Shown: positions 13,929 through 23,177, counted from the stretch's first letter. The stretch: DNA of 64,000 nucleotides from a virus (IMGVR_UViG_3300014208_000026:1-64000), one strand, 5' to 3'. The notes: a model not told the origin generated them from the sequence alone. A program made the numbers and translations.

Positions 13929-15191
13929 ATGCCCTTGATGACTTACGACGAACTCCCCGACGAGAAGAAACAACTCCTAAAGAGAGAGTTACGTAAGCTT
14001 TTCCTCACGGATTTCGGATTCGACGACAAAGAGTTGGGGCGGGCCGTAGTTACTCTGGACCAGTCAGCCAGAGCAGAGTTTGCTCGAAAGTACCGCCTCA
14101 AAGATGCTGATGAAGTGAACAAAGCCCTGGCCCAGATCAGCGGGAATCGCAGGGTGCCCAAATATGCTAAACGAATTGATCGCTTCTTCGTAGTGACCAA
14201 CCCAACGAAAAAAGACGAGTATGGCGACTTTGTTTTCCTGGCCGATTCGATCGAGCTTGGAGATATTGTCGTTGGAACCGGAGCCTCCGAATGGCGTCGT
14301 AGTCGTCCCGCTTTCTATGACACCGGCATGGATGCAGAAGCCGATGCCAACAAAAGACTGGACAAACTTTGGGACGGCGAGATTCCGGAATGGGTCTATG
14401 CAAATAGGTCCGCTGGCAACAGCACGGGTAAAAGGGCTGCATTCTGGAACCGACAAAAACCAACCGGCCCCACCGCTCCCGAAGGTCCCGTGGTGAAATG
14501 GTTCAATCGTTTTGCTGAGGTAAATGAGGCTTTCATCGAGAAACTACAGCAGAAAGCTCGCAAGGTATTCAAACGCGCTCCCGGGGGCTTCTCCCTGCCG
14601 ACCCAGGATGACGAGGATGCTTTTTTCTTCAAGCCCCTGCACGACCTGGAAGGTTGGTTTAGGGTGCTGTTCCCTGCGGGATACGGATCCGACTTCCTGG
14701 ATCTCGCTCGCAATCTAGGGGTAGAAGTCGTAAGATCCCACGGCATGATTGCATCCGACTTGAACCGCTGGGCTGTGAAAAAGGCTATGAGCAGGGTTTC
14801 CGGCGTGCAGTACGCCCGTATCGGGGACGCTGCAGACACCACAGGAAACCCCAAGTACAAAGGCACCTCCGCCGAAATCTGGTACGTGTTGCCCGCTTAC
14901 CACCGGCACTTCGGGATGGGATCGGGTTACGCCGAAACCCAGTATGGGCTGGCCCCGACCGTAGAAACCCTGGTAGACACCCACGTCAAGTTGGGCACTA
15001 TCGGGGAAAGGGACCTGGAAGCCCTCTTCGAAATGATGCAGGGCGAAGTCTGGAGTCCCGAAGGGGAAGCCAGGAGTTTGATCCTGAAGTCGGGAGCTAA
15101 GCACACTAGCATGTCCGTAGGAGACGTTGCTGTTGTGGCCGGACAGGCTTACATGGTCGAGCCTGCGGGCTTTAAGAAGTTGAAGGGTTAG
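13929..15191 (+). CDS. multidomain protein with C-terminal YodL-like domain
   Basis: C-terminal KHTSMSVGDVAV motif. Confidence 0.6.
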   Translation: MPLMTYDELPDEKKQLLKRELRKLFLTDFGFDDKELGRAVVTLDQSARAEFARKYRLKDADEVNKALAQISGNRRVPKYAKRIDRFFVVTNPTKKDEYGDFVFLADSIELGDIVVGTGASEWRRSRPAFYDTGMDAEADANKRLDKLWDGEIPEWVYANRSAGNSTGKRAAFWNRQKPTGPTAPEGPVVKWFNRFAEVNEAFIEKLQQKARKVFKRAPGGFSLPTQDDEDAFFFKPLHDLEGWFRVLFPAGYGSDFLDLARNLGVEVVRSHGMIASDLNRWAVKKAMSRVSGVQYARIGDAADTTGNPKYKGTSAEIWYVLPAYHRHFGMGSGYAETQYGLAPTVETLVDTHVKLGTIGERDLEALFEMMQGEVWSPEGEARSLILKSGAKHTSMSVGDVAVVAGQAYMVEPAGFKKLKG

Positions 15192-15196
15192 AGATT

Positions 15197-21200: not shown

Positions 21201-22854
21201 GAAGTTCCTGCGTGACGGCTTCGGGGACGAAGAGGAACAACAACCTGGAAAGGGCACCTCGAATGGCCGTTTCCTGTTTGTGTGCCCTACCGCCCTCCGT
21301 GGCAATCTCCCGAAAGAAATCTACGGGTTCCTCACCCCCGAAGCGGCCAAGAGTCTGATCGGCCGTTTGGACGTCATGTCCTACGCTCAGTTCCGCAAGG
21401 CTGTCCAGAGTCGTTCTTGGAACGGGAAACGCTGGAACCCTGAGAAGTACATTTCGATCTTCTTCGATGAGGCCCAGGAACTCAAAAATCTCTCTTCCAG
21501 AACGGCCAAGGCGGCGCTCTCCGTCAATCACCCCCGTAAGGTGTGCCTGACGGCTTCCCCGATGGAAAAGAAGCCTTTGGAAGCCTATATCCTGGCGGCT
21601 GTCACGTCGAACATTGACTTGACCCACCGGACCAAGGGGGCAGAAGCCCGCCGTAAGATGCGGAAGTTCAAAAATCAGTTCTGTGAAACCCTCGGTGGCC
21701 GTGTCGTGGGAACCAACCAAGACCCTGCAACTCGAAATGCTCTTGACACCTGGGTAAAGCAGAATATCTATTATGCTGACAAACGGGATATGGAAGAAAT
21801 GGCTTTGCCGCAGCTACACCAGGAAACCAAGACCATCACCATGGCTCCTGAGGTAGAAGCAGCCTATCGCGAGGCAACGCAGAAGATTGCCCGTGCCATG
21901 CGCGGCATGGTTTCCAAGTTCCGTGACCTGGGCTATATCGAAATCGAAGACGAAACCGGCAAGGTCACGAAGAGGATCAACCCCGAGGCCCGAGATCCCC
22001 GAGTGGAGAAAGCCTTCGGGATGAAGTTCAAGCCATTGTTCCGGCAGTTGGCCGTCCTGGCAAACTATCCGGAGCAAATCATCCCTGGAGCCGGAACCCC
22101 GAAACTGGACGTCGCTTCGCAGACCCTTCAGCAGAAAATGGACACTGCGGAGGGCACCAGAGCCCTTCTGTTCACGGACGACAAAGTTCTCGTGGAAATG
22201 ACGGCCAAGCGGCTGTCCGAGGATCTTCCAGGCTACCATGCCTGTTGCCTCTCTAACCGCATCGATATCTACAAGAACGGGGAACCCCTGACGGAGTACA
22301 GAGGGCTCAGTCTTCCTTTGACGGCGAGGGACTACTCCCCCAAGGACGCTCCTGAACTGGAGATCCCTCGCAGGTTCAAACCCTCGGAGTGGCAGCAGTT
22401 CGCTTTGTCGGTGGTGATAGCACCCTCGGCGCGATTCAAGACCTGTACCCTCCTGGGGCAGACCTACATGCAGGGACAGAACCTCCAGGCTTTTGACACC
22501 GTGATCCACCTGGACCGAGACACCTGGAATTCCGAGGACATGAAACAGCGCACGGCCCGATCCTGGCGCCAGGGACAGCACAATCCTGTTGACGAAATCA
22601 CCCTGGATTCTGTCTATGCGTCCCCGACTGACGATTTCGACCGGACCCTGGACGAGATCATGAGTTATGCTCAGACCATGGAGGGGAACCTCTTTGACGC
22701 CGTGATCAAGGGGGCCCAAAGTTACAAACTTGGCGGAGAATGGTTCGAGATGGACTTCCGGAATGCCTCGCAACTCGCGGTCAATAAGAGAACCATGGAA
22801 CTGGCCCTCTCTCCCTACGTCCATAGAAACCAGACACCGGAGAACGCAGCATGA
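18238..22854 (+). CDS. SNF2/SWI2-like SF2 helicase with long N-terminal extension and intein
   Basis: DTGTGK|T, FDEAQ, LTASP, QGQNLQ and QRTARSWRQGQ. Confidence 0.85.
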   Translation: MALGTPDFKEAEQAISRPAMVQIRRAFRQPRAIALFDFYIELRRVFLGEPVTEDLGIKFDALVRGFNITKAKGVGQRTMSPPSPMVINQLSEYRVQMRPWLSKLYNIYLERQTDPDSSQIFHPAVQWRRVIDTFAQIIPLAAKDRGIYLKDAVRMVDGVRWYNFRTMNPRETELENLKDNMPDVYAAIMERGELRKEIDAQISRQIVAAGQTPKTLKLIDRVMQVGIDPVTDEATVYETDGSVKPIDQYLEERKAYLRTQHKLEKAAPKIENPEDLRKISDRRLKSIEDQPVRYVSLTDDKAKAGRLTRIYPVVEWEGEEVVAAGRYKGIYMADLVNSQGRLLEGTSFTYSPKTGRGGGTGTPVRIRPENREPYVTVTSVMDEESGQKERKLTLKIGNAHEFADVRNTMMKLASLIPTVQMQRVEGSRAKSFVFDFKDFGTVRDRLPGLTVSEAAMKELRTYFQKLAKAELATARDQLRYYSAEEIGGFKPGLDFRIKQKQALAWLSASGNKGVCALDTGTGKCVRGDTLVSTPRGLHHIQDLVPANMAPGTHVPAETGEVRVGEEILQVKNWYYGGYKPTLKIKTRSGFEIEGSRIHPLLSRGSTGEHFVKLPELQTGEFLCLERETHAFSDTEPELAVPTLETFGEKGQNCIVYPVPDRMNPGLARLLAYIVAEGWTNHSHNFSISQCPISNPETRQDIDDLLKSQFGWTSNSEEKQKYTQISSRFIRVYLEWLGVDYTLSADKIVPPVIFRSTRESIIQFVKAFIDAEGSIDNRCLEVASASEKLLREMQVLLLQLGIVSVRRPKKVKGYEHIYWRLTIQGEGARKYADVVGMISKRKQRALEELINRHANPNHDIIPHSQSLVGALKEEIYTRAGGSNCGGGIVKRFGDDFSHTLGYILRSVRNPTYRFLEKMLDIAQQVGASDTDAYRDVEALCRRHYFYDPIESIESGFCEVYDLEVDDDRHWFVGNGFVNHNTLVTVGAMQKFLRDGFGDEEEQQPGKGTSNGRFLFVCPTALRGNLPKEIYGFLTPEAAKSLIGRLDVMSYAQFRKAVQSRSWNGKRWNPEKYISIFFDEAQELKNLSSRTAKAALSVNHPRKVCLTASPMEKKPLEAYILAAVTSNIDLTHRTKGAEARRKMRKFKNQFCETLGGRVVGTNQDPATRNALDTWVKQNIYYADKRDMEEMALPQLHQETKTITMAPEVEAAYREATQKIARAMRGMVSKFRDLGYIEIEDETGKVTKRINPEARDPRVEKAFGMKFKPLFRQLAVLANYPEQIIPGAGTPKLDVASQTLQQKMDTAEGTRALLFTDDKVLVEMTAKRLSEDLPGYHACCLSNRIDIYKNGEPLTEYRGLSLPLTARDYSPKDAPELEIPRRFKPSEWQQFALSVVIAPSARFKTCTLLGQTYMQGQNLQAFDTVIHLDRDTWNSEDMKQRTARSWRQGQHNPVDEITLDSVYASPTDDFDRTLDEIMSYAQTMEGNLFDAVIKGAQSYKLGGEWFEMDFRNASQLAVNKRTMELALSPYVHRNQTPENAA
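19807..21174 (+). mobile_element. intein with LAGLIDADG homing endonuclease, in Walker A of SNF2
   Basis: Starts CVRGDTLV, ends FVNHN before T; LAYIVAEG and FIDAEGS; 456 aa; lower GC than flanks. Confidence 0.92.
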
Positions 22855-23177
22855 GCGCCACCCGTCCTCAATCCCTACAAGAGTGGGCCGACCACATTTC
22901 CTCCTTGAGCCGGTCACAACTGACTTCGAAAGCCGTGGCCTGCAACACGATGTCCTTCGTCCAGGACCTGAAGCGAGAAGGTTATCTGATGGACGCCATT
23001 GAGGTCATCTTTGCCCTTCTGGCTCGGGCACTGTACAACAACAAGTTAATGCTCCCCACGGGCGGGGTCTTCGATTACGAGGAACTTCTCTCGAAGAAGA
23101 TCATGTACCGAGGGGACCCCGCCAAGGCCGTGAATGGCCCTGACGACGTGGATAAAGAACTCGATGCTCTAGACTAG
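22851..23177 (+). CDS. hypothetical protein
   Basis: ATGA-coupled to the helicase. Confidence 0.6.
   Translation: MSATRPQSLQEWADHISSLSRSQLTSKAVACNTMSFVQDLKREGYLMDAIEVIFALLARALYNNKLMLPTGGVFDYEELLSKKIMYRGDPAKAVNGPDDVDKELDALD

Follow-up and report, generated by a model that had tools for sequence, protein, structure and literature searches.

The first 64,000 nucleotides of the virus record IMGVR_UViG_3300014208_000026 (positions 1-64000, referred to here as the window) contain an operon of six genes on the same (+) strand, located between positions 13920 and 23177, in which a YodL-like domain, a C39-like peptidase and an SNF2-family helicase are encoded by separate open reading frames (ORFs), together with two proteins composed of small unknown domains. 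A first-pass annotation of this locus, made from the DNA letters, had described a modular cargo operon strung together by (K/R)xA(A/S) linkers and RVAxR(F/W/Y) motifs, and had read the two as one undescribed signal system for packaging and processing virion cargo. Here we show that the motif pattern is real and sharper than first described. It comprises a short site, (K/R)xA(S/A/G), a longer tag with the consensus R-V-A-S-R-(F/Y/W)-L, and a helical segment that we call the H-tag. The best explanation that we can offer, to which we give roughly an even chance, is that these elements form a peptide code for loading proteins into the phage head and for trimming them there.

The window represents bases 1-64000 of a 257,181-bp IMG/VR record, and because CheckV rates the record as 49% complete we take the phage genome to be ~500 kb in size. 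Genes were called on the basis of codon usage across the whole record (212 genes, 91% coding) and a further gene, 62341-62616, was added by hand, such that the motif statistics given below are for 213 proteins and 77.7k residues of the whole 257,181-bp record. No close DNA relatives were found among GenBank phages. The site, (K/R)xA(A/S), and the tag, RVAxR(F/W/Y), were counted apart, with expected counts taken from within-protein shuffles and the reversed motif serving as the control. The tag pattern RVA.R[FWY] was found 12 times when 0.1 copies were expected (reversed motif, 0), and the looser pattern [KR][VIL]A.[RQ][FWY] was found 17 times when 0.7 copies were expected (reversed motif, 3). 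For the site, there were 38 copies of [KR]TA[AS] compared to an expectation of 7.7±2.5 (z of 12; reversed, 10 compared to 7.1), and 179 copies of the loosest form, [KR].A[AS], compared to 114±11 (z of 5.9; reversed, 119 compared to 114). Moreover, in an unbiased ranking of k-mers the top tripeptide was KTA and the top 4-mer was KTAS, with KTAA, ASRF, VASR and RVAS near the top.

A pattern of this kind could in principle be an artefact of composition (Ala/Arg-rich helices), of paralogy, or of an in-frame DNA repeat. Alanine accounts for 8.8% of residues in the proteome and the loosest form of the site is enriched only 1.6-fold, both of which would fit such an origin. However, the reversed-motif controls are flat, the pattern was replicated in a second genome and across ~40 relatives, and the 17 tags, which are distributed over 13 proteins, have only the 10-13 residues around the tag in common, without wider homology. 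Furthermore, the codons differ at every copy of the tag (R is specified by AGG, CGA, AGA, CGG or CGC, and S by AGT, TCG, TCT, AGC or TCC), and selection therefore acts on the peptide and not on a DNA repeat. Codon variation thus rules out a DNA repeat as the source of the motif, paralogy is ruled out because the carriers are alike in the tag only, and we consider the chance that the pattern is an artefact to be practically negligible. A twin-arginine translocation (Tat) signal was also ruled out, as the tags contain no twin arginine, adjoin no hydrophobic region, and are in many cases C-terminal.

The tags are placed at the ends of proteins far more often than chance would have it. In particular, 11 of the 17 lie no more than 15 residues from a protein terminus when 1.8 would be expected (none of 5000 simulations reached 11), which bears out the placement at domain boundaries and termini proposed in the first-pass annotation. 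Four tags are N-terminal (as in MSSTK-RVASRYL and MSH-KVASRWL), seven are C-terminal (as in RVASRFL-KGQE-stop), and the six internal copies fall between recognisable domains of polyproteins. We entertained the idea that the terminal motifs are signals for degradation or turnover, read by an ATP-dependent protease that would thereby set when the proteins are removed, since degrons are typically found a few residues from a terminus, as are 11 of the 17 copies. However, the internal copies at domain junctions are conserved, and the motif is linked both to (K/R)xA(S/A) sites and to head genes; we therefore regard an explanation of this sort as very improbable.

Site and tag, which the first-pass annotation had treated as a single motif system, are two separate elements that are often fused. 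When the record was considered together with a complete 536-kb relative that we fetched whole (G002), 8 of 30 internal or C-terminal tags were found to have a (K/R)xA(S/A/G) site ending 0-3 residues upstream (for example, EKKTAS-RVARRFL, GKIAS-RVASRYMK and WRIAA-RVAGRYNRGE), whereas 0.68 would be expected and none of 3000 simulations reached eight. The C-terminal composite KFAA-Q-RVAARFL of the 429-residue protein is among the eight. Of six N-terminal tags, two are closely followed by a site. Every motif string quoted in the first-pass annotation is indeed present at the gene to which it was assigned, but MKRFA, TMTAS, YKTA, GKKAG and QKTAV do not fit the motif of which they were given as instances. 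Note that Gly-Gly sites of the type cut by C39 peptidases were also sought beside the tags; judged by eye only, these are not above chance.

The earlier inventory of motifs had missed the H-tag, a helical segment of ~28 residues with the pattern LRxxLIRLAHxNPELRxxLLPLL. This segment has eight carriers here, seven of them with an N-terminal copy and one with a C-terminal copy, and there are eight carriers in G002. In all seven N-terminal cases a (K/R)TA(A/G) site, or a close variant such as KLAG, follows within a few residues; ARTAA (62628) and IRTAA (63309), both of which had been listed as motif instances, are sites of this kind. The H-tagged protein 62628-63296 has a small DNA-binding domain like that of Fusellovirus VP2/DUF3008 and phrog_15706, and is a candidate DNA-associated internal head protein.

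Features of the operon, together with those discussed elsewhere in the text, are listed in Table 1. The YodL assignment made in the first-pass annotation holds by structure but not by profile search. Specifically, all 10 Atlas structure rows for the C-terminal 124 residues of the protein encoded at 13920 are clusters of PF14191 YodL (template modelling score by query of 0.61-0.67 over ~100 residues; Atlas feature score of 0.94), whereas the Pfam YodL hidden Markov model gave no match to this protein even at E≤5. Many of the matching clusters join YodL with ArdcN, LPD or DUF4316 domains, and in the homologues P0005-P0007 the YodL-like domain is followed by P-R(T/M)AS and then by a tag-like sequence. 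The Peptidase_C39 match of the protein encoded at 15197 scored 30.1 bits (the cut-off being 22), and the pattern QPSQYSCC...GHASVIYHV...ADPN is kept in G002, where the domain is 55% identical to the N-terminus of a 690-residue protein; the similarity stops at residue 183, the point at which the tail begins. The 429-residue protein encoded at 16051 had no Pfam match and gave only weak Atlas leads (residues 129-200, which are DUF4314-like, and residues 321-413), and no homologues of it were found in IMG/VR with peptide patterns or in five related huge-phage records. The 296-residue protein matches phrog_9437, a family of unknown function. In the SNF2 protein Pfam detected SNF2-rel_dom and LAGLIDADG_3, with Intein_splicing just below the cut-off, and residues 980-1537 are 37% identical to the intein-free orthologue in G002.

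Table 1 Features of the window and of the head module further along the record
Feature	Position	Strand
Promoter-like box CGTTTTTCTGCTTATAG, which departs from the consensus CGTTTTTCAGCCTATAG at 2 positions; 28 nt upstream of gene 13920	13876..13892	+
423-residue protein, with a YodL-like mobile domain at residues 300-423 (MMQGEVWSPEGEAR...HTSMSVGD, nt 15033-15125)	13920..15191	+
284-residue C39-like cysteine peptidase (residues 13-143); tail with sites and tag	15197..16051	+
Linker QVMAS-KKTAV-TLDMTA-RLAQRY-AEQQ-KTAV; sites around a degenerate tag	15704..15793	+
RLAQRY, fits [KR][VIL]A.[RQ][FWY]	15752-15769	+
RTAA site in tail of C39 protein	15947..15958	+
429-residue protein of small domains, no family assigned	16051..17340	+
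Site-tag composite KFAA-Q-RVAARFL, 6 residues before the stop of the 429-residue protein	17284..17319	+
296-residue protein; LRMAS at residue 122, RTMTAS, then C-terminal peptide ending WLRWEN	17344..18234	+
1538-residue SNF2-family helicase split by a LAGLIDADG intein	18238..22854	+
Intein after GTGK of helicase motif I (Cys524 to Asn979); G002 orthologue lacks the intein	19807..21174	+
108-residue protein, last gene of the operon; also adjoins SNF2 in G002 (36% identity to G002_195193)	22851..23177	+
KRQAS site and RVAAQF tag near the N-terminus of 364-residue protein 31181-32275	31232..31288	+
N-terminal tag MSH-KVASRWL of 91-residue protein 62341-62616	62350..62370	+
H-tag LRKAAIQLAHGNPKVRPYLLPLLA, then RTAA	62637..62720	+
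H-tag LRKTLVRLAHQKPELRGRLLPLI, then RTAA; protein 63309-64121 runs past the end of the window	63324..63404	+
Large terminase, split	74.5-79.8 kb	
Portal	80433-82304	
Tagged enzymes, directly after the portal gene	82.9-101.8 kb	
Head protease, two inteins	103161-106475	
Acidic repetitive protein, taken as scaffold	106491-107870	
Major capsid protein (MCP)	108768-109643	

In G002 the corresponding genes occur in the order GroEL, the 690-residue protein that starts with the C39 domain, a 726-residue protein, and SNF2. A GroEL-like chaperonin gene (11677-13197; Cpn60_TCP1, phrog_5725 at 1e-110) is also located directly upstream of the operon in the window, in synteny with G002. The 726-residue protein ends in ...RKTASVGPKTVEDWIIWED, which resembles the ...RTMTAS...SVKSWLRWEN of the 296-residue protein; the C-terminal pattern (R)KTAS...W..WE(D/N)-stop thus recurs just upstream of the SNF2 gene. 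The genes between C39 and SNF2 differ between the two phages, as would be expected for exchangeable cargo. We propose that the operon constitutes one late-expressed cargo set.

Most copies of the tag lie beyond the window, at 62-120 kb of the record. The number of [KR]TA[AS] sites per 1000 residues is 2.0 between the portal and the MCP and 1.8 in the small genes that precede the terminase, but falls to 0.36 in the replication block and 0.05 in the 19,353 residues of the tail genes. Similarly, the head module has 0.5-0.9 tags per 1000 residues, as opposed to 0.09 for the replication block, and in the whole-record count the tag was not found in tail, terminase, portal or early genes. The motifs are thus enriched over background by gene class, most strongly in the head module and least in the tail genes, and the impression recorded in the first-pass annotation that replication genes contain little of the pattern is now supported by counts. 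Of 14 tags, 10 fall outside the blocks conserved between the record and G002, which cover 78% of residues (P=1e-4); for [KR]TA[AS] sites the corresponding figure was 10 of 30 compared to 22% of residues, which is not significant (P=0.11).

A promoter-like box is shared between the tagged genes and genes for virion proteins. The consensus CGTTTTTCAGCCTATAG was found 24 times with up to 4 mismatches, compared to 8 times in the reversed control, and 17 of the copies lie 26-89 nt upstream of gene starts on the same strand. Besides the operon itself, the box is found ahead of genes with the tag (31181, 62341, 69026 and 117068), genes with the H-tag (82362, 128578 and 153583), and genes for the neck, tail and baseplate (120428, 124366, 160475, 194186, 210779 and 245183); we infer that the genes with this box make up a 'late' class. 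(The box of this candidate late class can also be written CGTTTTTC..CTATAG. A loose pattern for a second promoter element, CTATAG-N-TAG, gave 33 matches compared to 40 in the control and is too unspecific by itself.) Genes of the replication block have a different box, (A)TCGGGTATATAG, which is found upstream of 8985, 35339, 42020, 45775 and others. A third box, GTTTCATT...GGTGTATA, precedes 586, 13247, 30659 and other genes. The existence of several types of box suggests distinct temporal classes.

These distributions bear on whether the tag might have nothing to do with packaging and might instead be a short linear motif that, like clamp-binding motifs, binds a hub outside the capsid, for instance a factor of the host or a compartment or complex of the phage, and so localises diverse enzymes in the infected cell. 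Hub-binding motifs typically occupy such positions, at one or other terminus or in linkers, on enzymes that are unrelated to one another; several of the tagged enzymes act on nucleic acids, and one carrier (69026) may be a small terminase subunit. On the other hand, copies of the tag are concentrated in the head module, directly after the portal, and are rare in replication genes; the tags are joined to sites that are conserved in the scaffold and protease; and the carriers have a promoter-like box in common with virion genes. In addition, the tag is kept across relatives from many environments, which points to a receptor encoded by the phage. We therefore consider binding to a hub outside the capsid to be quite unlikely.

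The case for reading (K/R)xA(S/A) as a site for the head protease comes from the protease and scaffold themselves. The protease had BLAST matches to the annotated Tunturi_5 protease and to phage G gp19, and matched phrog_18299 (head maturation protease) with an E value of 1e-13, whereas a sequence search of the PDB returned no match. In an AlphaFold2 model both the core (residues 45-255) and a helical C-terminal domain are predicted with confidence. The core aligns with T4 gp21 (5jbl_B) with a Z of 8.0 over 127 residues at 3.2 Å, and with the proteases of varicella-zoster virus, pseudorabies virus, herpes simplex virus 2, Epstein-Barr virus, human cytomegalovirus and Kaposi's sarcoma-associated herpesvirus with Z values of 3.6-5.2; by Foldseek alone the match is borderline (E of 1e-3). 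Thus, as modelled, the protease is of the T4 gp21/herpesvirus assemblin fold. His63, His135, Ser142, His170 and Ser186, candidates for the Ser-His-His catalytic residues of such proteases, are invariant in an alignment of 26 protease sequences, as are R25 and K296, while A27, S28 and A298 are nearly so and A298 is mostly followed by S. The two sites so defined, R25-x-A27-S28 and K296-x-A298, flank the catalytic core in regions where the predicted local distance difference test score is below 50. The N-terminal site, R(V/T/I/K)A(S/G), is present at about residues 25-28 in 25 of 27 relatives and takes the form RVAS in 14 of the 27 and RTAS in six, which indicates that V and T interchange at P2. 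(Note that the protease gene contains two Hint/intein insertions, with exteins 1-128, 612-673 and 806-1104 matching the Tunturi_5 protease.)

As for the scaffold, 40 of 43 distinct relatives have a [KR].A[SAG] site at a distance of 11-16 residues ahead of the conserved C-terminal LW..APDV..F, whereas random 20-residue windows of the same ORFs contain a site in 20% of cases. P3 in this site is K or R, P2 is free (E in 17, T in 11, V in 6, and others), and P1' is S in 32 cases, A in five and G in three. This layout matches that of the release and maturational sites of herpesviruses, which is the reason for our reading (K/R)xA(S/A) as a head-protease site, and cleavage probably occurs after the Ala. 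The protease's own C-terminal helical domain, in the record and in G002 (residues 413-431), contains RTASSDADLxxRVAxFN, resembling the cargo composite KTAS-RVAxRF; this may hint at the origin of the tag or at its receptor. A complex prediction for the MCP (86-row alignment) with a 40-residue tag window (25-row alignment) gave a score of 0.00, which is uninformative either way on binding.

To what extent the tag is conserved was assessed in relatives of the phage. The MCP has 563 relatives in IMG/VR at ~85-88% identity, and its other matches are the GenBank metagenomic phage LR745208.1 (85%), Tunturiibacter phage Tunturi_5 (49%) and Bacillus phage G (37%). G002 is syntenic with the record and its proteins are mostly 30-55% identical to those studied here, compared to 85% for the MCP. 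(The MCP is unusually frozen, at 85-88% identity across hundreds of relatives compared to 30-55% for other proteins.) In G002, RVA.R[FWY] was found 11 times when 0.2 copies were expected, and 8 of 19 tags are near termini when 2.3 would be expected. Moreover, tags occupy orthologous positions in proteins that are only 40-52% identical between the two phages, both at C-termini (AKRVASRFLKGQE compared to TQRVATRYMAKN... in G002, and RVAGRYNRGE compared to RVASRYLEGRRF) and at N-termini (MSHKVASRWL compared to MARSVARRWV). At the loci that flank the MCP in other relatives the tag is again found at orthologous junctions, for example DLSLNYK-R(V/I)A.R(F/W). With a crude DNA pattern for the tag there were 15 matches compared to 2 in the record, 13 compared to 1 in another relative (G005), and 17 compared to 10 in G002; a narrow DNA pattern for RVASR(F/Y/W)L gave few matches in five relatives.

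The conservation of the tag allows us to weigh the principal alternative to a loading code, namely that RVAxR(Y/F/W)(L/M) is only an extended, high-affinity protease site (R-V-A|S-R-Y-L), the terminal copies of which are leftovers of polyprotein fission and fusion or serve in the trimming of ends. RVAS fits (K/R)xA(S) and is the most frequent form of the protease's own N-terminal site, and the internal copies lie exactly at the domain junctions of polyproteins. However, terminal copies situated 4-8 residues from the end are kept in the orthologues of 40-52% identity, and the conservation of such copies is hard to explain in terms of cutting, which would remove only a few residues. Furthermore, the tags of G002 often have N, Y, R or D at P1', a position occupied by S, A or G in true sites, so that the tag cannot simply be a cut site; the invariant R and aromatic residue (+5, +6) are absent from the scaffold and protease sites; and 8 of 30 tags have a separate canonical site immediately upstream. 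A strong protease site is thus, in our estimation, an unlikely explanation for the tag.

If the tag and site do form a loading code, it might operate as follows. (K/R)-x-A-(S/A/G), with (K/R)TA(S/A) as the form favoured in this phage, would be the recognition site of the head-maturation protease. R-V-A-x-R-(Y/F/W)-(L/M) would be a portable docking tag, placed at the N-terminus, at the C-terminus or between domains, that recruits unrelated proteins into the assembling procapsid through a receptor that could be the scaffold, the protease or the capsid protein on its inner face; the H-tag would have the same recruiting role from the N-terminus. Within the head, the protease could then use the sites beside the tags to strip these off and to divide polyproteins into their individual domains. 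The cargo itself would consist of the domains known from polyvalent proteins, some of which are here encoded by genes of their own. With respect to the packaging and processing signal of the first-pass annotation, the conservation of (K/R)xA(S/A) in the protease and in the scaffold tail, and the box in common with virion genes, support part of that proposal; cleavage, packaging and injection are what we infer from these features. That the signals are undescribed also stands, insofar as a literature search, incomplete in coverage, turned up no description of these motifs. A broader claim, that this code for loading cargo is a general one, works irrespective of position and can be added to any enzyme, is used in a widespread clade, and has the near-frozen MCP as its conserved receptor, strikes us as possible but doubtful.

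The closest known counterpart is the capsid-targeting sequence (CTS) of T4, which is carried by IPI-III and Alt and is removed by the prohead protease gp21 (PMC3012670, PMC9026906). In both cases a short peptide is found on unrelated proteins beside a site for the head protease (a putative site in the present phage), the two proteases have the same fold (Z of 8.0), and the cargo, or presumed cargo, includes an ADP-ribosyltransferase and other host-directed enzymes. The sequences are unrelated, however, with (K/R)xA(S/A) here in place of the (L/I)xE of T4, and whereas the CTS is confined to the N-terminus the RVA tag is found at either end or between domains. Here there are also two types of tag, and several tags in one polyprotein, and the system is a predicted one. 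Statistics, placement, conservation, carriers, protease fold and the conservation of the substrate sites all point to a T4-like scheme of targeting plus processing, one that uses other sequences and is less restricted in where the tag is placed.

Herpesvirus assemblins have a release site immediately following the protease domain and a maturational site close to the scaffold's C-terminal end (...QA|T and VQA|S), and the maturational cut frees the MCP-binding tail of the scaffold (PMC4498786). The fold of the protease, the presence of a site after the catalytic domain and of another before a conserved C-terminal tail of the scaffold, and the presumed scissile A-S bond are all shared with the phage; what differs is that protease and scaffold are separate genes here, that P3 is K or R, that there is an extra conserved N-terminal site, and that the position of cleavage is a predicted one. 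Among phiKZ-like phages, the SPN3US protease gp245 recognizes A-X-E, cuts propeptides at multiple positions and trims off a C-terminal part of itself; the protease aside, every SPN3US substrate loses a propeptide from the N-terminus, and a short tag of the portable kind is not described (PMC10052503). Many head and ejection proteins are trimmed at a short motif there, as we propose for the present phage, although the motif is another one.

Encapsulins provide a further parallel, in that short N- or C-terminal cargo-loading peptides send unrelated enzymes into a shell with the HK97 fold. Encapsulins, however, are cellular compartments that involve no protease step and use other sequences, and binding of the phage tag to the MCP is only putative.

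As regards the cargo, packaging, injection and peptidase processing have been predicted for polyvalent proteins, the genes for which adjoin the portal (Iyer et al. 2017, PMC5512222); the word 'linker' does not occur in the text of that paper (0 occurrences; PMC5512222). The tagged carriers include InPase (PF18823, 3.6e-35), ART-PolyVal (PF18760, 1.2e-16), HD and SAM-lyase/DUF3293-like domains according to Pfam and PHROGs. With the C39 peptidase and HExxH zincin-like proteins encoded at 82920-84026 (HEFGH) and 113751-114905, these bear out the statement of the first-pass annotation that domains typical of polyvalent counter-defence proteins are present, and the carrier domains, C39 included, are the polyvalent-protein repertoire (PMC5512222). 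InPase, ART-PolyVal, YodL, SNF2, HD and embedded peptidases are common to both, and the putative cargo genes here directly follow the portal gene. Unlike the published examples, many of the domains here are encoded on their own or linked to one another through a conserved tag and site, and whereas polyvalent proteins are often linked to MuF, no MuF domain turned up in our Pfam scans. Several unrelated domains are nonetheless combined in one polypeptide in the products of genes 85753, 87929 and 95131 and in a 1798-residue polyprotein of G002 encoded directly after the portal, which has the order 2H phosphoesterase and CCA-adding enzyme, tag, topoisomerase IB, tag.

A number of findings weigh against a loading code. 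The first-pass annotation had the operon strung together by both motifs, but an RVA-type tag is present in only two of its six proteins (15197 and 16051) and is lacking in the other four, including the SNF2 helicase. Several tags have no canonical site adjoining them, and simple targeting would not need multiple tags in one polyprotein. In other genomes, the crude DNA pattern for the tag was not enriched in two relatives (G001 and G003) and was not clearly enriched in the cultured relative Tunturi_5 (11 matches compared to 5). Across the proteome of G002, (K/R)TA(A/S) was not enriched (15 compared to 13.4), from which we conclude that the favoured P2 residue differs by lineage, and in G002 the residue after RVA is not always small (N, Y, R and D occur). 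Carrier 69026 has a weak match to a small terminase subunit (E of 0.003), and such a subunit would not be packaged. Finally, the C39 peptidase and the two HExxH zincins could do part of the processing.

Were a loading code nevertheless at work, the phage head could be programmed to deliver dozens of enzymes that act in counter-defence, tRNA repair and DNA topology. Such a code would explain by what means very large phages stock their heads with enzymes whose repertoire changes, and how polyvalent proteins are built and dismantled, and the tags alone would reveal which proteins of uncultured huge phages reach the host. It would also provide a phage case of Ala|Ser-type cleavage by a protease of the assemblin fold, at positions that mirror the herpesvirus sites. 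In practical terms, the short tags are a testable means of loading foreign proteins into phage capsids.

Several other observations concern the carriers and the head module. The zincin-like proteins 82920-84026 and 113751-114905 have a 43-residue block in common but differ in the end at which the RVA tag is found, which is C-terminal in the former and N-terminal in the latter. The 1798-residue polyprotein of G002 is encoded on the minus strand at L107:3971-9367 and amounts to a tRNA-repair and topology kit that may be packaged. In the record, the gene for a CCA-adding nucleotidyltransferase that follows a zincin gene (84026-85822) is broken by a 344-residue endonuclease-like ORF, which may be an intron, and the large terminase (74498-79834) is divided among three ORFs, with inserts that are intein- or endonuclease-like. 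A transposase gene (93900-95126; phrog_506, 2e-117) lies within the cargo cluster, between tagged polyproteins.

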